Positions 10,119 through 40,134 of a stretch of 64,000 bases of DNA are shown in pieces. How positions within the stretch are numbered: the stretch's first letter is position 1; every line of letters starts with the position of its first letter. Location: assembly GCA_035656295.1 (NCBI GenBank), contig DASRSU010000025.1, positions 150,132 through 214,131 of the forward strand, given 5' to 3'. The position numbers and the translations under genes were made by a program. A model generated the notes under the pieces. The model worked only from the letters and a program-made list of their open reading frames with translations. It ran no database searches and was not told where the DNA came from. The stretch is from Candidatus Bathyarchaeia archaeon (GTDB lineage: Archaea; Thermoproteota; Bathyarchaeia; 40CM-2-53-6).

Positions 10119-10128
10119 CACAGTTGGA

Positions 10129-11493: not shown

Positions 11494-11509
11494 CGAGTGC
11501 TTGTCTACG

Positions 11510-11842
11510 TCATCCGTAGGATTTAGCCAGTTTCCGGATCTCCTGCTCGATAACGTCTAGCTCACTCTGTTTTGATTCGAGCGACACACCGACTATCATA
11601 CAAAACCAAGTAGCCATCTCCTTTGAGTTCGAGAAGACGAAAACATTGCCGTCGTTGGTTGTGACTGTCCAACCGTTCTCGACTTGTTCGATCTTGAACG
11701 CTGCCCGGATACTTCTTACCGTTGCTTGTTTGTCCAACGCATATCCCTGAGCTTCGACGTTCGGCCCTGGGGCCTCTTCAAGAGAAGAGGCGGTTACCCT
11801 ACATTTGAGACTCGTGTTCCCGCGGTCATCTTTCGATAGCAC
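11510..11842 (-). CDS. hypothetical protein
   Basis: 110 aa ORF with no recognisable motif. Coding-like composition. Confidence 0.35.
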   Translation of the reverse strand: MLSKDDRGNTSLKCRVTASSLEEAPGPNVEAQGYALDKQATVRSIRAAFKIEQVENGWTVTTNDGNVFVFSNSKEMATWFCMIVGVSLESKQSELDVIEQEIRKLAKSYG

Positions 11843-12068
11843 TCGTGCGGCTGGCAGGCAGTCTCTAATCCATGTTTGTCTTCCTACTTTTTTACCGTAA
11901 CTGAGTTTAATAGGTGAGTGTTGCCTTGTCTATACGCGTATTTTAGTACCAATTTCCGTAGTTAGAGATAATCTAGACTAACATTCATGTCAACTGTCTC
12001 TCAAGTTAGTTCACGCGTTCCGCTCATATTTGACATGTTCAAGTTCGATAGTGTAATAACCTTGTTAC

Positions 12069-12078
12069 CTAAAAAAGG
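12069..12078 (+). promoter_or_regulatory. A-rich TATA-like box about 30 nt upstream of the 12099/12105 start (putative archaeal promoter, leaderless transcript)
   Basis: The sequence ttacctaaaaaaggtac sits in a 250 bp AT-rich intergenic region. Its spacing is consistent with an archaeal TATA box at about -26/-30. Confidence 0.25.
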
Positions 12079-12098
12079 TACTTTCTATCAGGAATAAA

Positions 12099-12788
12099 GT
12101 GAAAATGCTCAAACAAGAACAGCCCACGATAACCGCACAAAGTGGCGCGGAGATAAGTTACGAAGGCAGCGGCGTAGAAAAGCATAGACTCGTTATCGTC
12201 TGCGTGCGCGGTAATGTAAGCGTAAGAGAGACGATGAGGTCAATTCTACGAGACTCTCTGGACCCGTCAGGACTCCTTCCGGTCTACCTGTTAGGGCCGA
12301 CAGCCCCTGAGGATCTCCCGAGCCAAGAGACCGACAAAGTTGCATGGATAACTTTTGTCGACGGAACTTCTTGCACGCATCCTTCTCCCGGAGTTGAGAT
12401 AATTTCTCCTGACAACCTTCTCGAGGTCAACCTGTTCATAGAGAAAGCGGTTCAAGCCGCCAACAGTCACGTTCTGGTTGGCGACTTTCTTGACAACGTA
12501 ATAAAAACCGCAGGGTCCCCTGAGAGCTTCTATTCGTTCTTCTGCCAACTCGCATCTAGGGTCAAGATGAGAAAGAGAACGGCAATCCTTGTCATCAAGG
12601 AAGACATTCACGATCGCGCAATCGTGGAAATCGTCAAGAGATTCGCCGACGTCGTTGTAGAAGTTCGGGACCGAGAAAACGAAGGGTCGTTGAAAGTCGA
12701 AATGAGAACTCTTAACTTCGCCGACAATGTCTACACGTCATGGCGCCCGTTCTCTGAAGCGTTACGCCCCTTAGCAATCAACTGCTAG
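12099..12788 (+). CDS. hypothetical protein with a degenerate RecA/KaiC-like fold (no Walker A)
   Basis: 229 aa. The central region (LVGDFLDNVIKTAG...TAILVIKEDIHD) resembles RecA-superfamily strand topology but has no P-loop. GTG start, with an ATG at 12105. Confidence 0.4.
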   Translation: MKMLKQEQPTITAQSGAEISYEGSGVEKHRLVIVCVRGNVSVRETMRSILRDSLDPSGLLPVYLLGPTAPEDLPSQETDKVAWITFVDGTSCTHPSPGVEIISPDNLLEVNLFIEKAVQAANSHVLVGDFLDNVIKTAGSPESFYSFFCQLASRVKMRKRTAILVIKEDIHDRAIVEIVKRFADVVVEVRDRENEGSLKVEMRTLNFADNVYTSWRPFSEALRPLAINC

Positions 12789-12828
12789 ATTCTTAAGCCA
12801 AAACCTAGCAGGCATCGGGCCTGCAACC

Positions 12829-13554
12829 TTGCACGTTCTCCAGTACAAGCGCGTTGCATCAACAAACACGACGGCGCGCCGTCACGCTGAAAACGGAAAA
12901 CCCGAGTGGACTGTTGTCGTTTCAGGCAGTCAGAGTAATGGTCGAGGAAGACAAGGTGCGACTTGGCAGTCTCCTCGCGGAGGGTTATGGTTCACGATAA
13001 TCCTCCGACCCATCATCCCAACTGAAAGCGCGCCAACAATACAATTCCTCGCTGGAAATGGGCTCCTCAACGGCATCAGAGCAGTCACCGGCCTAGCACC
13101 TCGAGTCAAATGGCCGAACGACATACTCGTTGACTCGAAAAAACTTGCTGGGATTCTCGTAGAGACCAAAACAAGTAGCGCTCATATCGAATACGCGCTC
13201 ATTGGGATAGGTCTAAACCTGAATCTTGCTTCCAACCAAATACCCTCAGGGGCAATATCTACCCACATGCTGCTTCTAAGAAAACTCGACCCTAAACACG
13301 TTTTGAAAAAAATTCTGCAATCAATCCAGTCAGAATGTGACCAACCATTCAACCCTGAAAGGATCATGGCTCAATGGTGGAAAAACTGTATTCACAGAGA
13401 CAAACTGGTTACAATAAAAAGAGGCAAGACAAGCCTTAGCGGGCGCAACAGTGCGATAGACAATCAAGGACGCTTAATTCTCGACAAACCTTCGAGAAAG
13501 CCAATCCTGGTGTCTGAAGGCAGTCTGCAGCTGTCATCAACTCCCACAACGTGA
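12829..13554 (+). CDS. birA: biotin--[acetyl-CoA-carboxylase] ligase
   Basis: QSNGRGRQGATWQSPRGGLWFT is the canonical biotin-protein-ligase GRGRxGxxW motif. 241 aa. Immediately upstream of the carboxylase genes. Confidence 0.8.
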   Translation: MHVLQYKRVASTNTTARRHAENGKPEWTVVVSGSQSNGRGRQGATWQSPRGGLWFTIILRPIIPTESAPTIQFLAGNGLLNGIRAVTGLAPRVKWPNDILVDSKKLAGILVETKTSSAHIEYALIGIGLNLNLASNQIPSGAISTHMLLLRKLDPKHVLKKILQSIQSECDQPFNPERIMAQWWKNCIHRDKLVTIKRGKTSLSGRNSAIDNQGRLILDKPSRKPILVSEGSLQLSSTPTT

Positions 13555-13593
13555 CCCTGCTTTTATACAAGAATTACCTGGCCCGCGACAATC

Positions 13594-15141
13594 ATGAAAA
13601 TGCCGGAACTAATCAAGGAACTGAGTCAGCTCAAAGATGAGTCGCTGCGTGGCGGAGGCACAGACAAAATCCAACAACAGCACTCCAAAGGAAAACTCAC
13701 GGCCAGAGAGAGAATAGATACGCTCGTTGACCCTGGAAGCTTCGTAGAAATAGACCGTTACGCCGTCCATCAAACCACCGACTTTGATATGGCGGACAAG
13801 AAGATCCTCGGGGACGGTGTCGTAACAGGTCACGCGACAATCCAGGGAAGGAAGGTCTACCTCTTCTCGCATGATTTCACAGTGTTCGGAGGATCTCTAG
13901 GCGAAACATTCGCTAGGAAAATAACGAAGGTAATGGATTTGGCGCTGAAAACTGGTTTCCCGGTGATAGGCCTCAACGACTCCGGAGGCGCACGGATCCA
14001 GGAAGGCGTCGTAAGTCTGGGAGGATATGCCGAGATCTTCTTCAGAAATGTTCTTGCTTCTGGGGTAATTCCTCAAATTTCAGCAGTCATGGGCCCCTGC
14101 GCGGGAGGGGCGGTCTATTCTCCGGCAATGACGGACTTCACTATCATGGTGGACAAGACTAGTTACATGTTCATTACAGGCCCCGATGTCATCAAAGTGG
14201 TTCTCAACCAGGACGTGACCTTCGAAGAACTCGGAGGAGCGAGGCTGCACAACACTAGGAGTGGAGTTGCTCACCTTTTTGCTCGCGATGAGGAGGAATG
14301 CTTCCAACATATACGGAGACTCCTGAGCTATCTGCCATCGAACAACATGGAAGACCCCCCCGTAGAAAAACCAAGGCCTGCCGCAGGCACGACTGAAGAA
14401 CTCGACCGGATCTTACCAGACGATCCCGACAAGCCCTACGACATGACCGAGATCATTCGGAGAATCGTCGATGGTGGAGATCTTTTCGAGATACAACCTG
14501 ACTACGCGAAGAACATTATTGTGGGCTTTGCAAGACTCAACGGTTACTCGATAGGAATCGTCGCAAACCAGCCCAAGATAGGCGCAGGAGTAATCGACAT
14601 CAACTCATCTGTGAAAGCCGCGCGGTTCGTCAGAACCTGCGACGTGTACAACATCCCGATACTCACATTTGTAGACGTACCAGGATTTCTCCCAGGGATC
14701 GACCAAGAGCACGACGGGATAATACGCCATGGCTCTAAGCTGCTATTCGCCTACTGTGAAGCTACAGTTCCAAAACTGACTTTGATAGTCAGAAAGGCTT
14801 ACGGCGGCGCATACGACGTACTTGGCAGCAAACACATCCGCGCAGACGTGAATTTAGCGTGGCCGTCCGCTGAAATTGCAGTGATGGGTCCCGAAGGAGC
14901 GATCAACATCATTTTCAGGGATGAAATCGCTGAGGCTAGTGACAAGGATTCTACGAGACAAAAGCTAGTCGAGGATTACAAGAGAAAGTTTGCCAACCCC
15001 TTCGTTGCCGCAGGTCGAGGCTATATTGATGACGTCATCCAGCCGAGAGACACTAGAGAAATCCTCATCAAACATCTCGACTCTATCAGGACAAAAAGGG
15101 AAGCGCGTCCCCCGAAAAAGCACGGCAATATACCCCTATAG
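13594..15141 (+). CDS. pccB: acyl-CoA carboxylase carboxyltransferase subunit (propionyl/acetyl-CoA carboxylase beta)
   Basis: 515 aa. Typical PccB/AccD blocks ([31 protein letters not shown]). Confidence 0.9.
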
Positions 15142-27739: not shown

Positions 27740-29185
27740 TTACCGCGAAGACGGGCTGAACCTCGCGTTAAGCAAGTCGCTGGTAGCCCGGGGGCTATCC
27801 GCACTTACACTAGACGAGTACTGAGGTGCCATGCAAGTAATGCTCGAGTCACGCAGGTCTTGCAACACTGCTTGTCTCAGGACTCTGGTTAGCTTCGCGA
27901 CGTCTGACTCGTCCATTGAGTCTGGTCCTACAATGATCCTGTGCGGTTCGCTGAAACTCTCTCTTCGCAGCACTTCGTCCGGATTGTAGCCGAAGCTTGT
28001 AACGAGCTGCTTCAATAGATCCAGTTTGGTAGCCTGTGCTCTGGGCGTGATTGCGAGGTCTGCCTTACGATAGAGGTTGCGATGGAACTCTTCACCGGTT
28101 GACTTGACGTCGTTGTAGAGTTTGTTCTTGTGACCGAACCAGAATTCTACGTATTCTGGATTTACGCCTAGAGCTGAGAGTCTGGTTCGGAAGTAGTACC
28201 GGCAGCTGTGGACGCAGAGCTCGTGTCGTCTCTTGGTTAGGTTCGGATATCCGCACTCCTGGCAATCAGGGCCATGTCGTCTATGGATCCGCCAGCTTGG
28301 ACAACGTTTGATTATGCCTGCGCGGATGTAGAGCGAGTTGACCACGTGCCAGATCTCGCCAGAGGTGACGGGCTGTGCTTGATGGGTTGCGCTTCCTATG
28401 TTTCGTATGAGAGGGCTGTTGTCTCGGAGGGTCTCTGGGGGGAAGAACCTGTTGCCGCGTTGGCGGTCTGCCAGGTAGGCTTTGAGGAGGTCGACGGCTT
28501 CTGCTGGTAGAAAGGTCCAGTGGCCTTGGGTGTCCCAGCCTCTTCCTTTGAGGATCTGGGGTTCGACTCTGACCAGAACCGGTATGATGTTCTGTTCCAA
28601 GTCGTGTTTGACATGCCTGTACTCGAGTTTTGCTAGTGTTGCCGCTCTGAAGCCTCCTAGGGCGAGCAATACGATGATCACCTTTCCCCTCAGGTCGGCC
28701 ATGGCCAGGACTCGCTGCAGTTCTTCCGGACTCGGAGACCGGTCCGGGTAGACGACTGTCCGGGGATACCGTGGAAGATCCAGGCGTAGCTTGTTCGCTG
28801 CATAGAGGGCTTTGACTCCCTTGACATGGTTGGCTCTGGTGCCTGGCGCCAGAGTGTTCGTGTCTTGCAGGTGTCCCATGAAATCGTCGACTAGCTGCGC
28901 GTGTTTGACCAGCATCTTGGACAGGGGGTCGCCGTCTGGTCCCCAGCACTCGAACAGGATCTTGTCAGGCTCGCTATTGATCCATTTTGCGAACCGCCAG
29001 ATTCCGTAGACGTACTGGTAGGCTGTGTGGGGACTGCCGGTCGTGTGACGTTTCAAGTGACGTATCAGCTGAAGCACGGTCTTGTTGCGGAGGCTGAAGT
29101 CGATCAATACTGGGAACTTGGTACGGAAGGCTTGTTCCAGGAACTCTTTGATGCCACGTTCATAGTCCAATTGTTGACTAAGCAT
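27740..29185 (-). CDS. int: tyrosine recombinase / integrase (large, 481 aa)
   Basis: C-terminal catalytic region HSCRYYFRTRLSALGVNPEYVEFWFGH resembles the H-x-x-R...Y box of tyrosine recombinases. Lies at the element edge. The att repeat is embedded in its 3' end (codons SPRAT). Confidence 0.75.
   Translation of the reverse strand: MLSQQLDYERGIKEFLEQAFRTKFPVLIDFSLRNKTVLQLIRHLKRHTTGSPHTAYQYVYGIWRFAKWINSEPDKILFECWGPDGDPLSKMLVKHAQLVDDFMGHLQDTNTLAPGTRANHVKGVKALYAANKLRLDLPRYPRTVVYPDRSPSPEELQRVLAMADLRGKVIIVLLALGGFRAATLAKLEYRHVKHDLEQNIIPVLVRVEPQILKGRGWDTQGHWTFLPAEAVDLLKAYLADRQRGNRFFPPETLRDNSPLIRNIGSATHQAQPVTSGEIWHVVNSLYIRAGIIKRCPSWRIHRRHGPDCQECGYPNLTKRRHELCVHSCRYYFRTRLSALGVNPEYVEFWFGHKNKLYNDVKSTGEEFHRNLYRKADLAITPRAQATKLDLLKQLVTSFGYNPDEVLRRESFSEPHRIIVGPDSMDESDVAKLTRVLRQAVLQDLRDSSITCMAPQYSSSVSADSPRATSDLLNARFSPSSR
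27781..27794. repeat. attL core: direct repeat of the tRNA 3' end
   Basis: tggtagcccggggg is identical to 39590-39603. It lies within the last 18 codons of the integrase ORF. Confidence 0.65.
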
Positions 29186-29282
29186 TGTGGTGTTTCCACC
29201 CTTTCGAGGGTCCTGACGTCTGAACTACTATAAACGCTTTTACACTCATACACCGGTGTGTCGGAACCGAGACGGCGTGCGA

Positions 29283-29588
29283 TTAGGACAACCTCCGCAG
29301 CTCGATGATCGTGGCTCTGTGAATCGTCACGCCGGAGGCCCGGGGCTTATTCCCCTCTTCGCCTGGAATGGCGAAGGTCTCCCAGGTTAGCGTGATCACC
29401 TGGTTGTCCAGGTAGGCGACTCTACCCGTGGTGTCGAGGACTGGCGCTTCACGAAAGCACCTTGGATCTTTGTTGACGAATAATACGTGATCCCAATATT
29501 TGATTGCAACCAAGTCTCCGACGTGGACCCGGGTCTCTGCTGACATGGACTCCTTCAGTGCTGTCCCGCCTGACCCATTTTTCTGCAT
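29283..29588 (-). CDS. hypothetical protein (element)
   Basis: 101 aa ORF co-oriented with int. Confidence 0.35.
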   Translation of the reverse strand: MQKNGSGGTALKESMSAETRVHVGDLVAIKYWDHVLFVNKDPRCFREAPVLDTTGRVAYLDNQVITLTWETFAIPGEEGNKPRASGVTIHRATIIELRRLS

Positions 29589-29776
29589 AGAATACAGCTG
29601 GTGCCATCGTGTGCTGGCCTTTCCCTGCTGGAAGATCTCAGATGCCCGACGAGATCCAAAAGATCGAGAATTGTCTTGGCTAAGACAGGCCTCTCACGGT
29701 GGCAGAGTAGCAGATGCTCTTTGAGTGTCCGAGCGTCGTAGTCCTGCTTGTTGCAGACGGGACACTGACCTTTCAT
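29555..29776 (-). CDS. small zinc-finger protein (C2H2-like)
   Basis: CPVCNKQDYDARTLKEHLLLCH motif. 73 aa. Confidence 0.35.
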   Translation of the reverse strand: MKGQCPVCNKQDYDARTLKEHLLLCHRERPVLAKTILDLLDLVGHLRSSSRERPAHDGTSCILCRKMGQAGQH

Positions 29777-30024
29777 CTTGTCCGAACCTCTAGGTCGACC
29801 AGCTTCGATGGCGTAGCGGGCCGTTTCGCCATGGCGAGTACACTGGACCGCGATCGTTCCAATTCTGTTATCGGTTCGACGATCAAGCGGGCATGCGCAT
29901 CCAGGTAATGCAGCGTGTGAAAACTGGCACAGCTGGTCCTAACGTATCGCTCCCCAGGCTCTATCTCCAACTCGCAGACGTGGCACTGTTGGTACCGAGA
30001 ACCCTGATTGATTCGCACTTTCAT
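29773..30024 (-). CDS. small Cys/His-rich protein (putative Zn-binding)
   Basis: QQCHVCELEIEPGERYVRTSCASFHTLH. Overlapping start and stop codons with its neighbours suggest an operon. Confidence 0.4.
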   Translation of the reverse strand: MKVRINQGSRYQQCHVCELEIEPGERYVRTSCASFHTLHYLDAHARLIVEPITELERSRSSVLAMAKRPATPSKLVDLEVRTR

Positions 30025-31664
30025 TTCTCGGGTTCCTTGATTCGCTCGGGAGAGGTGGCATCGAAGCAGGCTTGGCAGACTAGGAATTCGTGATGGTGAT
30101 CAGGGCGGCGTGGCCCCTCTCTCTCGCATAATGCACAGGACCCTAACTCGACAAAGGGAGGTTCCACCTTGGGCAGAGCTCCGCCGTGACCCGTTTTCGA
30201 GTGAGAAAACACGATGTCACCTGAGCCGGGACCAGTCCCAAACTCGTCCGCTGGCTTGGAGGATAGCCCAAAGTCGGAGTTTGGGGAATCGGTGAGTCCG
30301 GATCCTCCAAGTGGGCGATCTTTGGGCTGGCCTGTCATCGTGTTTTCTTCCCTCAAAACATGCCCTTCGTCTAGGAGCTGCCAGCCCCTCTCCTGGGCCC
30401 AGCTGTCGACGGTGACCTGCTTGGCGTACTCGTCGGCTCTGATGTTCAGCGTCTCGGGGCTGAGCTCTGCGAACCTGAACCTCTGACCCTTCTTCCCAGG
30501 CTTGTTGTCAGGATGCTCCTCGACGTAGCCGTCTAGGCAGAGCCGGTCGACGTGGTCGCGGACCCACTGCTCTCCCTTCCGGACTTGGCGACGAACGTTT
30601 CGGTGGATCTCCTTGATCGTCAGATATTCGTAGCCGGTTACGGTGCCGAAGCTGTCCTTTTCGCTGGCGTCTGTCAGAACAGCGAGAATCGCGTCCTCCT
30701 TGGCAGAGACTCCTGACAAGGATTCGCGGAGACTTGCCTCGGCGAGTGCTCTGACGATCTCGATGTCCTGGGGCTCTGCTACGACGGCGACCGTGAGACC
30801 CTTCCGGGCTTTCCTTCTCTGTTCCTGGTAGAGCCAGGCGACGACGTTGATGCTAGACATCAGCTTCGGGAAGTCCCGACGGCTCTCAATGCTGCTGCTC
30901 GGGTACTCTGCCTTGATCAGATGAGCATAGGGATTCGCAACCTCGTAGGGTTTGAGGCCTTGCAGAAGATCCAGAAGCGCCTTTGTCCTAGGCTCTTCCG
31001 AGTAGTCCTCTGACGGGTCCTCGAATCCATCCGCCTCGTAGTCTAGGACCCTGTTGGTCTGTTCGGCGCTCTCGTCGATCTGCATAGGAATTATCCGGTT
31101 CTCGAACTCGGGATCCTGCATCGATGCGAGCGTTGTCGTGGTGATTACGCTGGGCGTGCCGACGACTTCGATCTCCACCGGCTCTCCGTTGATCACCGTG
31201 CCGAGTCGCAGACGACCCTCGCTGATCAGCAGCTTTGGCGATTGGGAGTTTGTGATGCCTCTCAGCTCGTCGATGAACAGAATCTTGCCTGAGAGGTCGA
31301 TTCTCCGGGGCTGTTCACGCCAAGCCTTGAGCTCAGCTACATATTCCTCGTTGGAGATCTCCTTCCGCATCACGGGTTTCGAAGTGGCCTGTGACTTGGC
31401 CATGTTCTCCAGGTAGGCGCCGGTGATCCTGCTGAACTCGATCACCACGCCCATTCTTCGGAATATGTCGAGGACCCGGTTGACGATCCTTGACTTGCCC
31501 GCGCCGGTGACGCCCTTGACGACCGCGGAAAGGGGCCCCTTGGTGAAGGCCGACAGGCAAACGAGGAACAGCAGCACTTTGTTCGTGTCTTCGCCGGCGA
31601 TCTTTCGGTCGAGATACTCCGTCTGAATTCGTTGCAGAAGATTCGGGTCCTTAGAGTCGAGCAT
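30021..31664 (-). CDS. P-loop NTPase, putative replication initiator/helicase of the element (SF3/AAA+-like), with C-terminal zinc ribbon
   Basis: Walker A KGVTGAGKSR at about residue 55. Walker B ILFIDELRG. Possible motif C VITTTT. C-terminal CALCEREG...CQACF. 547 aa. Confidence 0.7.
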   Translation of the reverse strand: MLDSKDPNLLQRIQTEYLDRKIAGEDTNKVLLFLVCLSAFTKGPLSAVVKGVTGAGKSRIVNRVLDIFRRMGVVIEFSRITGAYLENMAKSQATSKPVMRKEISNEEYVAELKAWREQPRRIDLSGKILFIDELRGITNSQSPKLLISEGRLRLGTVINGEPVEIEVVGTPSVITTTTLASMQDPEFENRIIPMQIDESAEQTNRVLDYEADGFEDPSEDYSEEPRTKALLDLLQGLKPYEVANPYAHLIKAEYPSSSIESRRDFPKLMSSINVVAWLYQEQRRKARKGLTVAVVAEPQDIEIVRALAEASLRESLSGVSAKEDAILAVLTDASEKDSFGTVTGYEYLTIKEIHRNVRRQVRKGEQWVRDHVDRLCLDGYVEEHPDNKPGKKGQRFRFAELSPETLNIRADEYAKQVTVDSWAQERGWQLLDEGHVLREENTMTGQPKDRPLGGSGLTDSPNSDFGLSSKPADEFGTGPGSGDIVFSHSKTGHGGALPKVEPPFVELGSCALCEREGPRRPDHHHEFLVCQACFDATSPERIKEPEK

Positions 31665-32111
31665 CTAGCATCCTTCCAGTTCTTTCGCGTCGACGATCTG
31701 GAGGTCCAGCAGCCAGCTGCGAGTCGCGGGGTCGAAGCTGAATGGTGCAACTCCCTCTCGCTTCAGCGCTCGCCTGTTGATCCGTTTGATGCAGCGCAGG
31801 ACCTTTTTCGGATACGCGTTCATCCTGAGAGCGAGCTCTGTCGTGGCCCTCTGCGACTTCTCCAGGAACTTCCGCATCAGGTCGCGCTCGAACTCTTCGC
31901 GGACGTAGGGGCCGATGACGATACTTGGCTGCCGCGCCTTCAGAATCACGGCCATGTTCCGCGCCAGACCGCCTAGGACCCGGACCTCTGCTCTCAGCGA
32001 GCGGATCTCGGAGAGGATCGGAGCTGTCGCATCCAATACGCGTCTCCGGCGCGTCCCCTTGCTTCCGCGTCGAGTCTTAGCCAAGAGCGATCTCTCCATG
32101 CGGTTTGGCAA
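31665..32111 (-). CDS. hypothetical basic protein, translationally coupled upstream of the ATPase
   Basis: 148 aa, Arg/Lys-rich. Its stop directly abuts the ATPase ATG. Confidence 0.45.
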   Translation of the reverse strand: MPNRMERSLLAKTRRGSKGTRRRRVLDATAPILSEIRSLRAEVRVLGGLARNMAVILKARQPSIVIGPYVREEFERDLMRKFLEKSQRATTELALRMNAYPKKVLRCIKRINRRALKREGVAPFSFDPATRSWLLDLQIVDAKELEGC

Positions 32112-32393
32112 AGAACCGGGGTCTTTTGCTAGCAGAAGCTGAGAGGACGCCCGCGTCGTCTCCGACTCCCGCGAACTGTGGTCGCTCGCAACCGCGAATT
32201 TTCATAGTCTAAGTGTCTCCGAGTTTTTCGGGCGGTCGGGAATGTGTTTCAAGAAACAGTGCTGGCGGTGATTGTCGCGGCCGAGTTCCGAACCAAGCGT
32301 AGACTTGATAGTTGGAGGAACCGTAAGTGCCCCTCGTGATTCTAGGCCTGAAACTTCGCCCGAAACAACTACACGCTCTAGGCGGGTGTTCCA

Positions 32394-32621
32394 CTAGTAC
32401 AGCCTCCTCCTGCAAGGATAGACGTGTCCAGTCCTCGAGCACTCCGGTCCTAGAAGTCGACCGTTAACGATCCGGGCCCGTTGTAGAGGCGAGAACCCGC
32501 AACACTCGCACGTCAGAGGCCCGTACCCGTATTTGGCTAGGATCTCTCGCGCCTGCATCTGGGCTTGACGGAGCCTGGCCTCACGCAATCGTTCGCGAAG
32601 CCTCTGGATCGAAGGAATCAA
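32394..32621 (-). CDS. small zinc-ribbon protein
   Basis: CECCGF...CSRTGHVYPC. 75 aa. Overlaps the next ORF by 4 nt. Confidence 0.35.
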   Translation of the reverse strand: MIPSIQRLRERLREARLRQAQMQAREILAKYGYGPLTCECCGFSPLQRARIVNGRLLGPECSRTGHVYPCRRRLY

Positions 32622-32863
32622 GTCTTGCCCCTGTCCGGTCCTGGTCCATGACTGAACCAGCAGTGGTAACGATGATTCTCGAAGCCGAGCGGGCTCAGCT
32701 CGTCAAAGTTCTCACCACAGTATGGACAGGTCTGTGCGATGACCGTTAGCGTTTTATCCGAGGATTGTCTAACAGTCATTTCTGACCTCTTCCCTGTTCG
32801 CGGGACTTGGCGGTGTCCAGCTGGTCGAAGGAATTGCCACAGTACGGCCAGAGGCAACAGCAA
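32618..32863 (-). CDS. small zinc-ribbon protein
   Basis: CPYCGENFDELSPLGFENHRYHC. 81 aa. Confidence 0.4.
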   Translation of the reverse strand: MLLPLAVLWQFLRPAGHRQVPRTGKRSEMTVRQSSDKTLTVIAQTCPYCGENFDELSPLGFENHRYHCWFSHGPGPDRGKT

Positions 32864-33200
32864 AATTCTTTAGCGGGGCCGGGCCTATGCGTGGCTGACC
32901 ACCTCTTCTTCCTGTTCGGCTCTTGGCGGGGTCGAAACCTGAAGATGGTCACGGGGCGTGGGATCCTCTTCCCCGCCCTGAATCATTCTAACAGTAGACC
33001 ATGCTATGGCCTCCATTCGTTGTACCGCGTGCAGCCCTAGTACTGTCATCGGAGTGTGGGCTGTCCCGCCAATTGTTTTGCAGGCGGCTTTGTTTGCTGT
33101 GTAGTAGTGAGCTCTGTATGATTCGAATCCTCTTCGATCTCCTCAAAGGACACGGAGCCACCGCCGATGAGATCTGCAACGGCCCTGTTTTTCGCGGCCG

Positions 33201-33563
33201 TCATGGCCGGATCTCTCCGTCGGACCTTTGGGCCGAGGTGACGGGCTGCGGTGCCTCGATGGCTCTGCCTGTTTCGTTGCCGTTGGTGATGAAAACACGA
33301 CGTCGCACATCGCCTCCAGTGGTTCGGACCCTGAAACTCCTGTACCGCGGGTCCTGCAACGCTAGCATCCCCAAGTAGCGGCGGGCACGGTGTTCGGTCA
33401 CCTTGTTGGCGTCGATCTCGACAACGTGCCGTGGCGGGATCTTCTTTACCACGGCTCTGAACTCGTCAAAGTATTCGCCTGGTCTGGACCGGCTAGGCAG
33501 TTTGATCTCTGGAAAGGTGCCGAGAAGAAGGCTGGTTTTGCTTCGTTTCATTTTCCTCATCAA
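33201..33563 (-). CDS. hypothetical protein (element)
   Basis: 120 aa, basic N-terminus. Confidence 0.3.
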   Translation of the reverse strand: MMRKMKRSKTSLLLGTFPEIKLPSRSRPGEYFDEFRAVVKKIPPRHVVEIDANKVTEHRARRYLGMLALQDPRYRSFRVRTTGGDVRRRVFITNGNETGRAIEAPQPVTSAQRSDGEIRP

Positions 33564-33602
33564 TATATACGAGAAGGGGTCGGGGGACTCTTTCGGTCAC
33601 GC

Positions 33603-34364
33603 ATGATCATTCCGTTCTCCAGTTTTGCGACGAACCTTGAGGTAGAGGGTACGTGCAACAAGTTTGCAAGGGCAGGCTTCAAGGTTGAACGACCACTGGC
33701 TCAGGGAACCCAGGGCTTCTGCAAAGTGACTCTTGACGCTGACCGCCAGCTGCGCCTACAGATCTACGGGACTCGACGGGTCCTGATCTACGCCCACGGA
33801 CCCGAAGACGAGGCGACGGCCAAAAAGTTGCTCAAGCGCTACGCGGTCACAGTCGACAATGCGCCGCTGAGCTTTGAGGACTACAAGGTCTATCCTGACA
33901 AGAAACAGGCTGCTGAGGATCTGATGGCGCTCTGCCAGATACTGCTCGTTGACAACCTGAACCTGGAAGTCGCGCTGGGTCTACTCGCCAGAGACCTCTC
34001 AGACGGTTCAGACAGGAGAGTGATGACAGAGTACGCGAAATCTCTTCATGATCTCACGAGGACGCTGTTCCGGTTGCGTCAACAGGACCCGTTGGCGCCA
34101 ATATCCCCCGCCGTGATCGAGAGTCTTGATCCTCAGAACAAAAGGGCAGACTGGATTCGTACTAATAGTCTGCCGGTTCCAACTGGAGCCTTCACCCAGG
34201 CGCTGCGAACGGCAGCCGCCACTCTCAGAGATCTCAGCCAGGACCCGACCGGCGTTTCAGAACAGTTGCGGACCCAGCCTGTCCACGACTTTACAGGGGT
34301 CTTCCGACGTGACGCTCTCCAGAGTTTTCAAAAGCTTGCCAAACACAGCGTGGCCGAAGGGTGA
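33603..34364 (+). CDS. hypothetical protein (element, plus-strand island)
   Basis: ATG at 33603 (MIIPFSS...) avoids overlap with the minus-strand ORF. 253 aa. No motif recognised. Confidence 0.4.
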   Translation: MIIPFSSFATNLEVEGTCNKFARAGFKVERPLAQGTQGFCKVTLDADRQLRLQIYGTRRVLIYAHGPEDEATAKKLLKRYAVTVDNAPLSFEDYKVYPDKKQAAEDLMALCQILLVDNLNLEVALGLLARDLSDGSDRRVMTEYAKSLHDLTRTLFRLRQQDPLAPISPAVIESLDPQNKRADWIRTNSLPVPTGAFTQALRTAAATLRDLSQDPTGVSEQLRTQPVHDFTGVFRRDALQSFQKLAKHSVAEG

Positions 34365-34370
34365 TCTCGG

Positions 34371-34637
34371 ATGCCAAGTATCGTAAAGCCTCTCGAAAGC
34401 TTCGATGGCCGAATCATTGGACTGAGACAAGTTTCAGTCGGCCCTTTCATAACTCAGCCTTACACTGAGATCATGATAACGCGGGGCGTCGATTTCGCGG
34501 ACGAACTCTACATACTTGACCAGCCGATCGAGACGGTCCCGCAGGTTTGCATGTTGAAGAGGCACCGGTTCGACAGGCACCATTCACGCATTCTGAGAAT
34601 CGTGGAACACATTGACCACCTAAGCAAGTCAAACTAG
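34371..34637 (+). CDS. hypothetical protein (element)
   Basis: 88 aa, 6 nt after the preceding plus-strand ORF. Confidence 0.35.
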   Translation: MPSIVKPLESFDGRIIGLRQVSVGPFITQPYTEIMITRGVDFADELYILDQPIETVPQVCMLKRHRFDRHHSRILRIVEHIDHLSKSN

Positions 34638-35617
34638 ATCCTGTAACCTAGATGCTGCTTTCAACCCCTCGTGACACCCGCATGTTCAAAATCCTCTACT
34701 CGCTTTACAGCGTAGCATTCCTACTAGTGCTCTACAAGGTGCCACTTACGATCCAGAGCCGTCGCCCTTGAACTCGGAGTTAAGCCAGCCCGGATAGAAT
34801 CAGAGTTCTATGCTGTCATGCGAAACTTGCGAGACATCGCAGAAGAGGCCTGGAATGACAAGAAACTTTTCTTCGACAAGCTCGGTTGGAAGCAGAGCTG
34901 GCAGGGCGGGCCTTATCGCCGCGCCCTCGACTCTCGACTAGTTCAGCGGGAGTCTGATCTCGATTGCGGGTAGCATGGCAAAATCCCTGGACGAGTTTAG
35001 AAGCCTCTGACAGATGTGCCAAGTGGCACTCCGCAGGAGCGTGGCAAGCAGAAACTCTTGGTACGGGACACTAGTCGAGGCTACATCGTGGAAACGATCC
35101 AGGAATGAGTCAGGAGAACGTGATTATCAAGGCTTGATAATTGTGCAAGCCAAGCGACACCGGCTAGGACGAAGTTGTTGTGTTCCCAGGCCTGCGGATC
35201 ACCCGATTCGTCCAGGTATAGAATGTACAAGATCTTGCTTCGGAGTCGCAAACAGAACTCGATAATAAAGGCAGATGCAACCCAGTACGGTTTTTACGCC
35301 GTAGCGGACCGCCGAGGCAGCCCTCTGGATCGCACTTAGAATCTTGTAACCTCAGAATGTAAACATTGTGGCTCCCGACCGTCCTAGCGGTTTGGTGAAG
35401 CTAAAGATCCAATGCCAACAGAGCCTTGACTAGCTAGGCCTCTGTGATGTGGACCATGGACGACTCTCCGGAGTCCTAGAGGTTGAACAACAGAGAAGCG
35501 TGAACGTGAATGGCAAAGTAATGCTGGACAGCCAACGTTTCAGTAGCCTCGTGCCATGTGGCAGAAACTGTTCCGGCGATGGTTGCTAGGACCCGTCTTG
35601 CAGAAGCGAGCGTGTTC

Positions 35618-36115
35618 TCAGCTGGATGATGTAATGGGATGGATGGTCCTTTCTTTTAGCCGACGTTCCGCCCAATCCTTCTCGATCATCGCCTGACGCT
35701 TCAGAACGTCCTCTAACTGGTCGGTCATCCAGAGCTGCTCGAGGTCTGGCAGGAACCGTGATAGGACGGCGAGGCTGCTGACGATTCTCGCTAGTAGGCT
35801 GCTTCGAAGCTCCGGTTTGCCTGCATTGTTAGAGTCGTGATACATCCTCCAGGCCTCGCGCATGACTAACGTGATCCGGTCGTGGATCTCCTGAAGGAGT
35901 TTAGAGTGCATGTCTCGGGATGATTGTGTGATGCAGGCGTTTCCGTCGCGGACTTCAGCGATGGCGCGGCTGACTGTCGACTGGTCAACCTGCAATGATT
36001 CGGCGATCTCGACTTGGGTCCAGCCTTTGAGGTGCAGCTGGTAGATCTGTTCGCGACGCTTCTCGACTTCCCGCCGCTTCAACGACTGGCTAGAAGTATG
36101 CGAGTTTACGCTCAA
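35618..36115 (-). CDS. HTH DNA-binding protein (sigma-70 region-4 / small-terminase-like HTH)
   Basis: LKGWTQVEIAESLQVDQSTVSRAIAEV helix-turn-helix. 165 aa. Confidence 0.55.
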   Translation of the reverse strand: MSVNSHTSSQSLKRREVEKRREQIYQLHLKGWTQVEIAESLQVDQSTVSRAIAEVRDGNACITQSSRDMHSKLLQEIHDRITLVMREAWRMYHDSNNAGKPELRSSLLARIVSSLAVLSRFLPDLEQLWMTDQLEDVLKRQAMIEKDWAERRLKERTIHPITSSS

Positions 36116-36140
36116 GACTCATTCCGTGGAATGCGCATAT

Positions 36141-36377
36141 TCAGCCCAGTCTTCCAGCCGCGAGGTCTTGATGTGCCTGTTTCACGGTTCGGAGGTGTAC
36201 ATGGGGCTGCAACAGTTTCCGGGCCTCAAGCTGGATTCTCGCTATTTTCACTACAAGCGCGAGCCGTGTGCTCGGCCGCGTCCAGGGGAGCATGTCGAGT
36301 AGGCGTTCTGACTCGTATACGAGCTGTGTGAATCTTAGATGTCTCGAGGACTCGTCCAGGCTTGACATGGGCGCCAT
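36141..36377 (-). CDS. hypothetical small protein
   Basis: 78 aa ORF co-oriented with its neighbours. Confidence 0.25.
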   Translation of the reverse strand: MAPMSSLDESSRHLRFTQLVYESERLLDMLPWTRPSTRLALVVKIARIQLEARKLLQPHVHLRTVKQAHQDLAAGRLG

Positions 36378-36404
36378 ACTATTGTTGTCAGGCTGGATCA
36401 GTTC

Positions 36405-37187
36405 TCAGTTTCTTGTCCATCGCTGGTGCTCGCTACACCAGGTCCAGCCGCGGCTTTCGCGCACAGGTACGGCTGACTCACGGTATCGGGCTCGGATGCT
36501 TTGAAGAGCTCGTTCATGCCGGGCACGTTCTTCTTCCTCCATATCGTCAAGGTCGTCGGCGTGTAACCGTCTGTTGTCAGGGTCGTCCTCGGCCCGAATT
36601 ACCTTCTCTGCGCGAGTGTATGCCTGTTGTGCTGGCGGCGCCGGATAACCGGGCCGACCCCAGAACCCTGTTCGTCGACGCTGGCTCCTCCGACGGTAAT
36701 TGGGCCGATGAGGAAAATCGTCAGCGTAGATTCCTAGTGCGGCTATGTCGTCGCTGCCGGGCTTGAAGCCTGCCATCGGACCCGCCTCTGTAATCGGGCT
36801 TCTCGCGAAATGTTGCACCGTCTCTTCGACTCCGCGTGGAATACCGACTCCCATCTGCCTCGCGAAGTCTATGAATCTCATTCGGTCGTGTCCCATCCTC
36901 CCACCGGGGCCGTAGTCGATAACTGTGGCGCCGGGTCCGATGGTTGGTCCGTTCGCGAATGGTGGCCTGTACGCGGCTGCAAGCGTGTTGACGGTGCACA
37001 TGCTTGACTGACCTCCAGCGGACTCGTGAACGTTGACGGGGAGGCCCATTATCGACATCGGCCGTGACTCTTGGATCCGTCTCGATGCGCCCAGGACTCT
37101 ACCGACGAGCTCGTTTCGTTCTGCGAGTCTGGCTCTTACTTCTTCCGGCAACGAGGTTGCAGTGATCATTCCTGACCATTCTTGCAT
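36405..37187 (-). CDS. hypothetical protein (element)
   Basis: 260 aa. Gly/Pro-rich middle with an acidic C-terminal stretch (DDLDDMEEEE). Confidence 0.45.
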   Translation of the reverse strand: MQEWSGMITATSLPEEVRARLAERNELVGRVLGASRRIQESRPMSIMGLPVNVHESAGGQSSMCTVNTLAAAYRPPFANGPTIGPGATVIDYGPGGRMGHDRMRFIDFARQMGVGIPRGVEETVQHFARSPITEAGPMAGFKPGSDDIAALGIYADDFPHRPNYRRRSQRRRTGFWGRPGYPAPPAQQAYTRAEKVIRAEDDPDNRRLHADDLDDMEEEERARHERALQSIRARYRESAVPVRESRGWTWCSEHQRWTRN

Positions 37188-37310
37188 CTTCGATCGTTAC
37201 TAGGCTAGCGTTCGTGATTGAAAACTTTTGTGGCGGATGCGCTGCGTGCAGGTTGGGCGTATCCGAACCGGATCTCGTGTAATCTTCGGGGCGTACTGCG
37301 ACAATTATTG

Positions 37311-37856
37311 TCATTCATTCCACAGGTTTAGGTCTGCATGTTCACGTAACGCATTGTACAAGCATTCTTCTAGTATTGTCTTGTCAAAGCCTCCAGCACG
37401 ACATGAGTCATAGTCGCAGGATTCGCGGTATAGTACACGTGCACTCGCCTCGGAATAATTCTCAGGAGGATTCATTGCGAACGAGCTCCCGTAGACGTGG
37501 TAGACGTCGATCTCTTTTCCATTCAGCTGTGCGACTATGTCCCCCTCGTCGTGCTTTTTCGAAAGCGCTACAATCTGCGCGACCGCACGGTCAAACTCTT
37601 TCTTGCTGACATGCATTTCTAGCATGCTCCTTGAAAAGTGTTTGAAACCCAGGACTGCTGGAGCACTGCAGAGCCGGCAGATCGTCGTCCGGGGCCACGC
37701 CGGCTGTTCTACGCCGCATTTCTGGCACTTCTTCTCGACCACGAGCGGGTCTCCATTGCAGGATCCAATAGGGCCCCTCCTACCGTTCAACTGCTGCTCT
37801 TGATCTCCAGCTCGATGGTCTTCATCGTTCTCGGCCGTGTTGGGGGTACGGATCAT
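37311..37856 (-). CDS. hypothetical Cys-rich protein
   Basis: CQKCGVEQPAWPRTTICRLC zinc-ribbon-like N-terminal part. 181 aa. Confidence 0.45.
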   Translation of the reverse strand: MIRTPNTAENDEDHRAGDQEQQLNGRRGPIGSCNGDPLVVEKKCQKCGVEQPAWPRTTICRLCSAPAVLGFKHFSRSMLEMHVSKKEFDRAVAQIVALSKKHDEGDIVAQLNGKEIDVYHVYGSSFAMNPPENYSEASARVLYRESCDYDSCRAGGFDKTILEECLYNALREHADLNLWNE

Positions 37857-37977
37857 CCAGGCAGACGATTACTACAAGCATGAGCGTGTGACCGACCCTG
37901 ACTTTTTCCAGAACGATGATGTCCGGTGACTCGAAAAAGGGGGAGTTTGAGTTTTGTCGTGTTGTCAAGATTGCATG

Positions 37978-38526
37978 TCAGCCTGATGCTGTACTATAGG
38001 CCGCGAACACGGTTTGGAAGGAGACGGATCCAAGGGCCCCGGTCCGCGCGGCGCTGAGTTGCAGTGTCAAGATGGTGCTGGTTGTGCCGGGCGTCAACAT
38101 CAAACATCCGGTCACGGTTGGTGTGCCGGGACAGGCAGCTGTCCCGAGCTTGCTGGAAAAGTCCCATGTCAAGGTTACACCGTTCGGCAAGCCCGGATTG
38201 GTGGTGAGTGATTCGACGCCTGGAGTGGTGCTATCAACGATCCAGATGTTGGTCAGGCCGGTGTTGACAATGCTGATCTGGTGAGTGCGGCTTGTTGTCT
38301 GCTGGACATCGCCCCATGTCAGGGCTGTAAGTGTTCCGCCCTTCGTAACGTCGTTGACTGACATGCCTGGGGCGCCGGTGATCGTGACTGTTGATGGTAC
38401 GATGAAGTTGCTGAGGAAGACCGCGTATGCTCCCGTGGTGATGGTAGCTGCGATTACTGTTGCGAGCAGTATCTTAACGAGTTTCTTCACTGTTTTTTCC
38501 ACCTTCGATTGGAAGCTTTCCAACAA
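37978..38526 (-). CDS. secreted/membrane-anchored Thr/Gly-rich beta-rich protein (possible structural or surface protein of the element)
   Basis: N-terminal hydrophobic segment KILLATVIAATITTGAYAVFL, followed by a Thr/Gly/Val-rich region of about 150 aa. Confidence 0.5.
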   Translation of the reverse strand: MLESFQSKVEKTVKKLVKILLATVIAATITTGAYAVFLSNFIVPSTVTITGAPGMSVNDVTKGGTLTALTWGDVQQTTSRTHQISIVNTGLTNIWIVDSTTPGVESLTTNPGLPNGVTLTWDFSSKLGTAACPGTPTVTGCLMLTPGTTSTILTLQLSAARTGALGSVSFQTVFAAYSTASG

Positions 38527-38589
38527 CCATAACCTCGTCCAGCCTCTGCCGGGAGCTTCGCGGGGATACGTCCGCGGTTTTTGCGGAAC

Positions 38590-38868
38590 CTACAAGACCG
38601 GGAAGTAGAGGGCTTCCTTACCGCAGCGGCGTTTGGCCAAAAACCCTTTCTTCTGGAGAAAGCTGAGGGCACGGTCCATCTGGTCCGGGCTCAGCTGCAG
38701 GACTCTGGCACGATGGAATCGGAGGAGCTCAACCCGGCTGAAAGGGTACAAGTGTTCTAGGAAGAAGAGGTAGAGTTGGACCCGTGGATCCTCGAGGGTT
38801 CCCACGAGTCTTGCCAGGGCTCCTAGGAGTCTTTCCGATGAGAGTTTCGCAATGGCCCGGTCGGTCAA
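38590..38868 (-). CDS. winged-helix transcriptional regulator-like protein
   Basis: 92 aa, wHTH-like (LSPDQMDRALSFLQKKGFLAKRR). Confidence 0.45.
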   Translation of the reverse strand: MTDRAIAKLSSERLLGALARLVGTLEDPRVQLYLFFLEHLYPFSRVELLRFHRARVLQLSPDQMDRALSFLQKKGFLAKRRCGKEALYFPVL

Positions 38869-39086
38869 CCCGCCACCTCCCGAACGGTGCCCGGGACCCG
38901 GGCAGCATCATGCTGGAGGCCTATTGTGCCATCCAGTACGTGGGGGCCCTCCTCCGGCAGATTCCATAGAACAACCGTTCCGTCTTCCTGCATGTGCTGG
39001 ATCAATTTGATCGAGACCTGGCAGGACTCGCAATAGTCTGATGCGCCGCGAGGCACATTCAGGTTGCAACCCCAGCAGACCGTCAT
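38865..39086 (-). CDS. small zinc-ribbon protein
   Basis: CWGCNLNV...CESCQ. 73 aa. Confidence 0.4.
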   Translation of the reverse strand: MTVCWGCNLNVPRGASDYCESCQVSIKLIQHMQEDGTVVLWNLPEEGPHVLDGTIGLQHDAARVPGTVREVAG

Positions 39087-39250
39087 TCTTCGAACTCCCA
39101 GAACATGGCTCCGCCAGCAGTGTATCCACAGTCATTGCAGCTGAACGATTCCAGTTCTTGATCTAGCTCAAGATGTGTCGAGCCGCATCCTGGACAGGTC
39201 GAAATGGGCTTCCAGGACCAGGTTATTGTCGGCGTGCGTATGCTCATTTC
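39083..39250 (-). CDS. small zinc-ribbon protein (55 aa; below the ORF-track cutoff)
   Basis: Hand translation gives MSIRTPTITWSWKPISTCPGCGSTHLELDQELESFSCNDCGYTAGGAMFWEFEE. Overlaps the downstream ORF by 4 nt (atga). Confidence 0.35.
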   Translation of the reverse strand, partial: EMSIRTPTITWSWKPISTCPGCGSTHLELDQELESFSCNDCGYTAGGAMFWEFEE

Positions 39251-39327
39251 AAACACTCCGGTGTATTAGTGTACGCGTGTAGTACAACTTATAAGTGCTT
39301 CGGTGTGAGAGTGCAGGAACACCGGAA

Positions 39328-39483
39328 ATGGCACGACTGAACCTCCTCCTGGAGGACGACCTAGCCAAGAAGCTGCGGCTAAGAGCCGTCGAACTGTACG
39401 ATGGAGAGAAAGGGGCCCTCAGCAGGGCGATATCTGACGCGGTAGAGCTCTGGCTGGAGAAACCTGCTTCAAGGAAGAAATGA
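39328..39483 (+). CDS. ribbon-helix-helix (CopG-like) protein
   Basis: MARLNLLLEDDLAKKLRLRAVELYDGEKGALSRAISDAVELWL is a beta-strand plus two helices typical of RHH regulators. Lies next to attR. Confidence 0.45.
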   Translation: MARLNLLLEDDLAKKLRLRAVELYDGEKGALSRAISDAVELWLEKPASRKK

Positions 39484-39589
39484 GAAAAAGGGGGGATGTG
39501 GCATCAGCTGTGTTCCTCCGAAGAAGGATCGGTGGAGCCCTTGTTCTGATCAGTTTCAGCCTTGTCTGGTAGCTTTCTAGTGTAAGTCG

Positions 39590-39603
39590 TGGTAGCCCGG
39601 GGG
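39590..39603. repeat. attR core, equal to the 3' terminal 14 nt of the tRNA gene
   Basis: Identical to 27781-27794. Confidence 0.65.
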
Positions 39604-39709
39604 AGATTCGAACTCCCGTCGATGGGTTTCCTCCCGGAATCTGGTCCAAAGCCCATCATTGACCGGGCCATTTGTCGAGGCCCTTGCTAGTCCACTACAC
39701 CACCGGGCT
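39590..39709 (-). tRNA. tRNA gene with encoded CCA, about 120 nt, probably containing intron(s); isotype not resolved by hand
   Basis: Reverse complement ends ...GGGAGTTCGAATCTCCC-CCGGGCT-A-CCA: a 5 bp T-stem, a TTCGAAT T-loop, and a 7 bp acceptor stem pairing with the 5' AGCCCGG. Excess length and internal helices (GGGCC...GGCCC; ATGGG...CCCAT enclosing 25 nt) suggest one or two introns. Confidence 0.6.
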
Positions 39710-40134
39710 ACAAGTTTCGCTCCTCGTTCAGGATACCCAATAAAGCCTTCCCAGATCTATTCCTGATCATAGAAGATGTTCCTACGAAAATGCTCCCCCG
39801 AAGAGATACGATCTTCAGTAACGCACTCTCGTGAGGCCTTTTGCGACTTCACTGTGTCAGTTGTCCACTAAATTTGGAGATCATGGTGAATGAATTGCAA
39901 CCCACGCGAACAGGTTAATCGTGTATGCGTCCAGAGGAGCGGGGCACTCTCCCAAGTTGCCAGGCCATCAGATTAACTGGCTGAGCCGTCATTCTAGCTG
40001 GCTCGCCGTTTCGAATTTGACAAGATGCGTCCGATGACTCCTATGGCATTTTATTAAGAGCTGAGCAGACAGCGTTATTTCGTATTACTTGGGTAATACA
40101 ATCAACTGCAGGATGTCTTATCATTGGTCTCATC

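Follow-up and report, generated by a model that had tools for sequence, protein, structure and literature searches.

In a 64,000-nucleotide stretch of the genome of a Candidatus Bathyarchaeia archaeon (contig DASRSU010000025.1 of assembly GCA_035656295.1, positions 150,132 to 214,131; hereafter, the window), we studied the gene for a 547-amino-acid (aa) ATPase (30021..31664, minus strand), which sits on an integrated mobile element of about 11.8 kb beside a tRNA gene. We propose that this protein is probably the replicative helicase and initiator of the element. Specifically, its predicted structure points to an MCM-like helicase that lacks a primase, that would load itself onto DNA, and that would rely on the host for priming. 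(MCM is short for minichromosome maintenance.) Judging from sequence comparisons, replication is the best reading of the ATPase's role because its relatives are fused to primases. The initial annotation of this region, which was made from the DNA sequence, had also described a replication module, and the fusions favor that description.

The initial annotation had placed two open reading frames (ORFs) here, the ATPase and a smaller Arg/Lys-rich one just upstream (148 aa as listed; 31665..32111, minus strand), and we found both of them at those positions. They are real genes and not chance ORFs, as indicated by their homologues: a word-indexed search finds 46 relatives of the ATPase besides itself, an exhaustive search finds 3826 representatives at E ≤ 1e-3 (1241 of them at E ≤ 1e-10), and the small ORF has 10 homologues. 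The end of the small ORF had been said to meet the start of the ATPase, and indeed, the junction reads ...GGA TGC TAG ATG CTC..., with the TAG directly abutting the ATPase's ATG. At the other end, the ATPase's stop codon and the start codon of an 83-aa ORF (29773..30024, minus strand) overlap in the shared sequence ATGA. Because of these abutting and overlapping junctions, the ATPase gene belongs to a tightly packed string of minus-strand genes, which includes the 83-aa ORF.

The protein consists of an AAA+ core with a lid (residues 1-317; 30714..31664), a winged-helix domain (residues 318-405; 30450..30713), a short conserved helical piece (residues 406-437), a disordered linker (residues 438-503; 30156..30353), and a C-terminal tail (residues 504-547; 30024..30155). 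(All of these coordinates, and those of the motifs, are on the minus strand.) Its motifs lie about where they had been predicted to be: the Walker A motif GVTGAGKS at residues 51-58 (31491..31514), the Walker B motif ILFIDE at residues 128-133 (31266..31283), and a threonine-rich TTTT at residues 175-178 (31131..31142). As had also been noted, the protein has no primase domain. We quantified conservation with an hmmsearch alignment of 191 sequences; the denominators are the numbers of sequences aligned at each position. In Walker A, G56 is conserved in 180/180 and K57 in 178/180 sequences, and in Walker B, E133 is conserved in 171/182. Between Walker B and the TTTT motif is a conserved SEG motif (S148 in 172/182, E149 in 171/182), which is part of a candidate pre-sensor-1 beta-hairpin (residues 146-168; 31161..31229) that we identified from the secondary structure of the predicted model (by DSSP) and from conservation.

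Good candidates were also found for the residues that sense or trigger ATP hydrolysis in AAA+ proteins, for which the initial annotation had suggested a search. T176 (170/182) and T177 (168/183) lie in the TTTT motif, which ends strand 172-177 and is a candidate for sensor 1. R190 (31095..31097), which follows helix 185-188 and precedes strand 192-195, is an arginine in all 181 of the sequences aligned there, and AAA+ topology makes it a candidate for the arginine finger. R262 and R263 (30876..30881; each in 177/178 sequences), which start the lid helix 260-278, are candidates for sensor 2, and R283 (177/179) and D300 (178/179) are similarly conserved. By analogy to other AAA+ proteins, the arginine-finger and sensor candidates might act in trans. 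Together with the Walker motifs, these residues bear out the view that this is an AAA+-type P-loop ATPase.

The linker had been described as acidic. It is only slightly so: 33 of its 66 residues are Gly, Ser, Pro, or Thr, and it has 9 Asp or Glu versus 6 Lys or Arg. It appears to be disordered, given this composition and its low model confidence (pLDDT below 50; pLDDT is short for predicted local distance difference test). The predicted pair of CxxC motifs is present in the tail (CALC at 510-513 and CQAC at 530-533), which is a candidate zinc ribbon. Among 47 family proteins, this four-cysteine pattern is found in the tails of 8 and a C2H2-like pattern in 5, and neither pattern is found in the 15 most distant of them (P0033-P0047). 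The closest homologues, P0002 (79% identity) and P0005 (78% identity), have a different tail that has no cysteines. Because of this pattern, the tail appears to be a real but swappable module. It has no confident fold in the predicted structure.

We modeled the ATPase with AlphaFold2 using an alignment of 40 sequences (pLDDT 78.7; predicted template modeling score, or pTM, 0.74). Confidence was high over most of residues 1-437, with dips to 56-71 at about residues 131-160 and at 181-190, and it was low in the linker and the tail. When this model was compared to the PDB with Foldseek, as the initial annotation had recommended, MCM subunits were the best matches, and RuvB and Orc1/Cdc6 came next. 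A structure search that is independent of Foldseek, against 48,161 representative chains, also ranked MCM first, followed by RavA (Z = 14.4), BchI (13.2), BrxL (12.2), a MoxR-like protein (12.1), ComM (11.3), and Cch (10.7); the MCM matches were 1-5 Z units above those of the RavA/BchI/BrxL type. The start of the model (residue 1) aligns to residues ~264-483 of the MCMs, which is the start of their AAA+ tier, and several of the alignments continue to residue ~409 of the model, so the winged helix of MCM is included. The aligned residues are 11-16% identical.

The predicted structure has the AAA+ core and lid of the MCM type. It also has a candidate for the pre-sensor-1 hairpin of MCM: DSSP assigns strands at residues 151-158 and 161-168, which come after Walker B and directly before strand 172-177 (pLDDT of 56-71 in this region). 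A hairpin before the TTTT strand has the position of the pre-sensor-1 hairpin in MCM-type AAA+ proteins. Besides this hairpin, the ATPase shares with MCM a C-terminal winged helix, and it has the conserved candidates for an arginine finger and sensor 2. Unlike MCM, it has no N-terminal OB-fold/zinc domain (OB is short for oligonucleotide/oligosaccharide binding), as the protein starts at the helix before Walker A; it has an added disordered linker and zinc tail; and its gene is carried by a mobile element, and it has relatives that are spread through bacteria.

What links this fold to replication is the family that the ATPase belongs to. The precomputed Pfam domain PF27228 is present in 25 of the 46 non-self homologues, including some at 40-62% identity; for instance, P0007, which carries PF27228, matches the ATPase with E = 6e-165 and 57% identity. 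The ATPase can thus be placed in PF27228 via the homologues that carry it and not by its own score against the model. In Pfam 38.1, PF27228 is named MTBMA_p00010_2nd, and the Atlas describes it as "MTBMA_p00010 P-loop." The ATPase's nearest neighbors in the Atlas, by features or by structure, are PF27228 clusters, many of which also have Toprim_2, DNAG_N, or Zn_ribbon_DnaG domains, and the Atlas says of the aligned portion that it "meets the bar for a name" (PF27228). When we compared the ATPase to Pfam, PHROGs, NCBIfam, and PDB sequences, we found only sub-threshold P-loop and winged-helix matches, such as Zot (E = 0.005) and AAA_30 (E = 0.003), both of which are below the cut-offs. So, the initial suggestion that this might be a distinct family was right in that the sequences are distinct, and it missed that the family had already been catalogued. 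MTBMA_p00010 is presumably the first gene of pME2001, a plasmid of Methanothermobacter marburgensis. The whole of pME2001 has served as a replicon (PMC8609365), and a review (PMC4379921) mentions a report of a putative Rep gene for this plasmid. A full-text literature search for MTBMA_p00010 returned 0 papers.

Many members of the family have additional domains. In 57 of 190 relatives, the ATPase is preceded by 120 residues or more; we scanned these, along with two in which it is preceded by 108-115 residues, against Pfam (59 in total). We found primase-type or DUF3854 domains in 22 of the 59: 13 have DnaG-type domains (zinc ribbon, DNAG_N, or Toprim), 5 have archaeo-eukaryotic primase (AEP), PrimPol, PriCT, or RepB-primase domains, and 4 have DUF3854. 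There was no informative N-terminal match for 36 of the 59. Several relatives have MarR-type winged-helix matches after the ATPase, and on bacterial plasmids, the matching proteins carry the annotation CHC2 zinc finger or toprim. One 642-aa relative (P0121) has a Gins51_C domain (PF22090) at residues 10-54, before the ATPase (E = 4.4e-12, 46 bits). This would link an MCM-like helicase of a mobile genetic element to a component of the host's CMG complex (CMG is short for Cdc45-MCM-GINS).

A scan for related loci with a closer alignment found one bacterial metagenome-assembled genome in the genome collection and 38 loci in the metagenome collection. Seven of the related contigs are viral (L001-L007, ~10-22 kb), with genes for the large terminase subunit (TerL), portal, capsid, and serine recombinase among the ORFs that we scanned. 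The family protein on the viral contigs combines DUF3854, the ATPase, and a MarR-like winged helix (for example, L003:2384-4570 and L006:3206-5488), and it is the only replication candidate among those ORFs. In a bacterial metagenome-assembled genome, a tyrosine integrase directly follows the family protein. We did not find any matches in GenBank phages (tblastn, E ≤ 1e-3).

We propose the following mechanism. The winged helix would bind the element's origin, and the AAA+ domains would assemble as a ring around the DNA. ATP would be bound by K57 of Walker A and E133 of Walker B and sensed by the strand with T176 and T177, and R190 and/or R262/R263 would trigger its hydrolysis across the interface between subunits. 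The hairpin at residues 146-168 would then carry DNA through the pore, and the helicase would travel 3'→5', as MCM does. We scanned 21 ORFs of the element against Pfam and found no primase or polymerase domain; most of them are small zinc-finger, zinc-ribbon, or helix-turn-helix proteins or have no match. Because the element does not encode a primase or a polymerase, priming and synthesis would be left to host enzymes, perhaps recruited by the C-terminal tail.

Several observations weigh against an MCM-like helicase. The case for a helicase depends entirely on a predicted structure: the relation to MCM is structural, and by sequence it is marginal at best. The MCM profile PF00493 does not match the ATPase (E ≤ 1), and in a search of the whole genome it finds only the host's 687-aa MCM, which is on another contig. 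Similarly, when the family is compared by hhalign to the host MCM or to 30 aligned MCMs, the probability is just 1.6-1.7% (P = 0.029). The alignment to the 30 MCMs is colinear (residues 1-387 over MCM residues 281-680), it matches up the two Walker A motifs and the two Walker B motifs, and it places "IxGED..K..LLFL" before Walker A in parallel with "IYGyEdvK" of MCM. It also places RRDF (residues 262-265) opposite the PRQLE stretch of MCM, at this low probability; R190 and R262/R263 are where the topology would lead us to expect them, and their equivalence to MCM residues rests on this low-probability alignment. The initial claim that the protein resembles none of the textbook replicons thus stands for the sequence (no PF00493 match; hhalign probability of 1.7%) and fails for the fold, which is closest to MCM. 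Within the model, no hairpin is predicted in helix 82-92, so the helix-2 insert of MCM is not evident, and an insertion with a helix at residues 93-120 is present in close relatives only and is missing from distant ones. Also, the next structural neighbors after MCM (RavA, BchI, and BrxL) are not replicative helicases.

Other points against a replicative helicase come from outside the structure. Like the protein in the window, 133 of the 190 relatives lack a long N-terminal extension, and 37 of the 59 that we scanned with Pfam had no primase-type match. We searched the element for an origin (by repeats, tandem repeats, and composition in 200-nt windows) and found no iterons and no AT-rich tract. 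Among sequencing runs, the stretch was found in the probable source sample only, as contigs, and in no RNA run. Among the contigs of the probable source sample, we found no joint across the element, which is silent as to its excision or copy number. Finally, our literature search found no published study of the family and no biochemistry for any of its members.

If the ATPase is not a helicase, it might be an initiator like Orc1/Cdc6, with an AAA+ domain and a winged helix that mark the origin and recruit the host's MCM, and with no unwinding activity of its own. The architecture is the same (AAA+ followed by a C-terminal winged helix), the host does have an MCM to recruit, Foldseek's matches include 2qby_B, 2v1u_A, and 1fnn_A (E about 3e-7), and thaumarchaeal elements that encode Orc1 are described in Krupovic et al. 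2019 (PMC6563490). There is also a weak match of residues 310-395 to the C-terminal part of the Orc1/Cdc6 model TIGR02928 (E = 0.014), but at 14.2 bits it is far from that family's cut-off of 181.3. Furthermore, fusion to primases, as seen in the relatives, is the usual arrangement for helicases. The hairpin before sensor 1 is a feature of MCM-type and SF3-type proteins (SF3 is short for superfamily 3) and not of the initiator clade. We consider an Orc1/Cdc6-style initiator unlikely. An SF3 helicase, such as papillomavirus E1, SV40 T-antigen, or P4 alpha, to which the initial annotation had likened the protein's layout, would have the same role as an MCM-like helicase and would come from another lineage of AAA+ proteins. 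Walker A, Walker B, the hairpin, the threonine-rich strand, and the arginine are indeed compactly spaced in the more distant relatives, and the long members of the family have their domains in the same order as P4 alpha (primase, helicase, winged helix). However, no SF3 helicase is among the best 50 matches from Foldseek or in either list from the other structural search, although absence from such lists is not decisive; no SF3-type family in Pfam or NCBIfam matches at E ≤ 1; and the helical region after strand 192-195, with the invariant R262/R263, aligns with the lid of MCM. We consider an SF3 helicase very unlikely.

Mobile elements often bring defense genes with them, so we also considered that the ATPase might be non-replicative cargo, that is, a remodeling, defense, or regulatory AAA+ protein of the MoxR, RavA, BchI, or BrxL type with a DNA-binding winged helix. 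Most of the relatives have no primase domain, as would be expected for such a protein. But primase-type or DUF3854 domains do occur in 22 of the 59 extended relatives, and Gins51_C in one of them, the structural matches to MCM have higher Z scores, and in the small phage-like contigs no other replication candidate is present among the ORFs scanned. It is quite unlikely that the family is of this type. Lastly, the weak matches to Zot and AAA_30 are generic P-loop matches and are all that might favor an ATPase for DNA packaging or DNA transfer (a large terminase subunit or a protein of the TraG/VirD4/FtsK type), which is highly improbable. No terminase or coupling-protein family in Pfam, PHROGs, or NCBIfam matches the ATPase, its structural neighbors are AAA+ proteins with lids instead of terminases or FtsK-type proteins, and the related phage-like contigs have a separate TerL.

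Our preferred reading, an MCM-like helicase, can be compared to other known systems. Cch (DUF927) from the staphylococcal cassette chromosome SCCmec is described in papers as an MCM-like helicase that is active, and a homologue of Cch has been reported on a thaumarchaeal element (PMC6563490). Like our ATPase, Cch is an AAA+ protein that is encoded by mobile genetic elements. However, the ATPase matches the structure of Cch (PDB 5dgk) much more weakly than it matches true MCMs, and it has no match to the DUF927 family in Pfam (E ≤ 1). It belongs to a separate sequence family; neither its profile matches nor its closest structural match place it with Cch. Kazlauskas et al. 2018 (PMC5862659) describe replication proteins from mobile genetic elements that have a primase, an ATPase, and a winged helix, in that order, with the intervening ATPase domains being predicted helicases. 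The long members of our family are similar (a DnaG-type or AEP primase, the ATPase, and a MarR-like winged helix). The protein in the window differs in having no primase domain, and according to Pfam its ATPase is not VirE, DUF927, DUF3987, RepA, DnaB, or MCM, which are families that the paper names. The Rep proteins of Staphylococcus aureus pathogenicity islands (SaPIs) are helicases that load themselves and bind to their own origins (PMC9371898). By analogy, phage P4 alpha and SaPI Rep could be viewed as functional counterparts of the primase-helicase-winged-helix members of the family.

The annotation of the family with an MCM-type fold is useful; helicases from mobile genetic elements that have winged helices and primase-fused relatives were already well known. 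A family of 3826 representatives with a placeholder name in Pfam can now be linked to MCM, by structural type, and to primase fusions, which makes PF27228 a concrete target for helicase assays. More tentatively, PF27228 as a whole might be a deep and sequence-divergent branch of MCM, or "mini-MCM" (an AAA+ tier and a winged helix), that loads itself at the origin, that has spread through plasmids, phages, and integrated elements of bacteria and archaea, and that has repeatedly been joined to DnaG-type primases, to AEP primases, and even to a GINS domain. The protein in the window would then be a primase-less archaeal form with a swappable zinc tail that borrows the host's priming. We regard this broader scenario as possible but somewhat short of probable. 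If it is true, then MCM-type helicases are far more common in the mobile elements of bacteria than had been thought, and PF27228 is a minimal system for studying an MCM-type motor without the N-terminal tier.

The small gene upstream of the ATPase is, as far as its predicted structure shows, a real winged-helix protein. As had been claimed, it is rich in Arg and Lys (34 of 148 residues; pI 11.25). The model (pLDDT 73.8) has a disordered basic tail, a long helix at residues 30-59, and a winged helix-turn-helix (about residues 63-148). The TTG start codon is uncertain: an ATG at 32099 (giving 144 aa) better fits the N-termini of the homologues, and one cluster representative starts further in (123 aa). 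The 10 homologues are 60-99% identical to it, and 4 of them retain the basic "KR..R.K.TRRRR" tail at the N terminus.

The initial annotation had also coupled the ATPase to this basic protein. Although the two genes abut in the window, the coupling is not a general feature of the family. We compared 19 proteins of the element to 46 loci with relatives of the ATPase (using tblastn) and did not find a homologue of the 148-aa protein, nor did phmmer find one when we took, from 35 loci, the ORFs that immediately precede the ATPase. In both size and charge, the ORFs that immediately precede related ATPases differ from one another. A related and apparently decayed element (L075, which is G301:C15:40500-57887; the element is at ~9770-14380) is present in a different genus from the same taxonomic family. 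It has an integrase (34% identity) and homologues of o101 and o62. Of the 148-aa gene it has a C-terminal fragment, which is broken by a TGA codon, and it does not have the ATPase. (Its other ORFs were uninformative.) Because there is no homologue in the 46 loci, and because the fragment in L075 is present without the ATPase, the pairing seems to be local to this lineage of elements. The winged-helix protein is predicted to be co-expressed with the ATPase, and it is probably a regulator or an accessory DNA-binding protein instead of a fixed partner of the helicase family.

The ATPase gene lies on an integrated element of about 11.8 kb, as shown by raised GC content, an integrase, and a repeat of the tRNA's end at both ends. 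In 2-kb windows, the GC content is 0.535-0.585 from 28000 to 40000 and 0.478-0.526 elsewhere in the window. The integrase is a tyrosine recombinase of 481 aa (27740..29185, minus strand); its match to PF00589 (E = 1.1e-4, 22.4 bits) is under Pfam's cut-off of 27.1, and it also matches the phrog_1 integrases (1.4e-7) and the XerA-like family NF040815 (2e-7). The direct repeat (family D3), which provides candidate attachment (att) sites, spans 25 nt at 84% identity and includes a core of 14 nt that matches exactly (CCCCCGGGCTACCA). The left copy is at 27781..27805 and the right copy is the 3' end of the tRNA gene (39590-39614). One contig from the probable source sample starts in the flank and covers most of the element. 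Krupovic et al. 2019 (PMC6563490) describe many such elements for which no replication protein could be named; for this cryptic archaeal element, a likely job is now assigned to its largest gene.

The patchy distribution of the ATPase also fits a mobile gene. There is one copy in its genome, and among 301 genomes from the same class, just 19 have a match at E ≤ 1e-5. The only close match is in the window's own genome, and the next best has E = 5.8e-25.

The left att copy falls within the final ~22 codons of the ORF that encodes the integrase. Therefore, the ORF crosses the junction, and it ends about 40 nt beyond it, in what is probably host DNA. Candidates for the integrase's catalytic motifs, which were identified by eye, are well upstream of the junction. 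By analogy, this layout would be a mild form of the "att inside int" arrangement of SSV-type elements (SSV is short for Sulfolobus spindle-shaped virus).

The tRNA gene at the other end (39590..39710, minus strand) appears to contain insertions. It was not called by ARAGORN, and the match to the tRNA family RF00005 in Rfam (31.5 bits; 39593..39669, minus strand) covers a shorter version only. The sequence and the cloverleaf-like fold of 39588-39712 suggest that the gene is about 121 nt long, that it contains insertions, and that its CCA end is at 39590. The apparent insertions are in the region of the D arm and in the anticodon loop, and by eye, the anticodon is possibly UUG. Some metagenome contigs share both ends of this tRNA gene and differ in the middle. 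The joints that we saw in contigs (39620/39621→39685) fall within the tRNA gene and probably derive from the tRNA genes of other organisms.

As to the other genes of the element, 29283-32863 (minus strand) is a string of ORFs with 4-nt or abutting junctions, which encode proteins of 81 and 75 aa and then, after a gap, of 148, 547, 83, 73, and 101 aa. Several of these are small CxxC or C2H2-like zinc proteins, and the string looks like one operon that ends at the integrase. The 182-aa ORF at 37978-38526 (minus strand) has a hydrophobic N-terminal segment and a body that is rich in Thr and Gly, and DUF6133 is its sole match, and a weak one; it may encode a protein that the element has secreted or placed at the surface. 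Finally, the element contains a DUF3800-VI RNA motif (RF02915; 35278-35332, minus strand), which scores 47.1 bits versus a gathering score of 35. The motif is just upstream of a 56-aa ORF (35081-35251, minus strand) with a weak match to the N-terminal part of DUF3800 (E = 0.037), which looks like a truncated DUF3800 gene.

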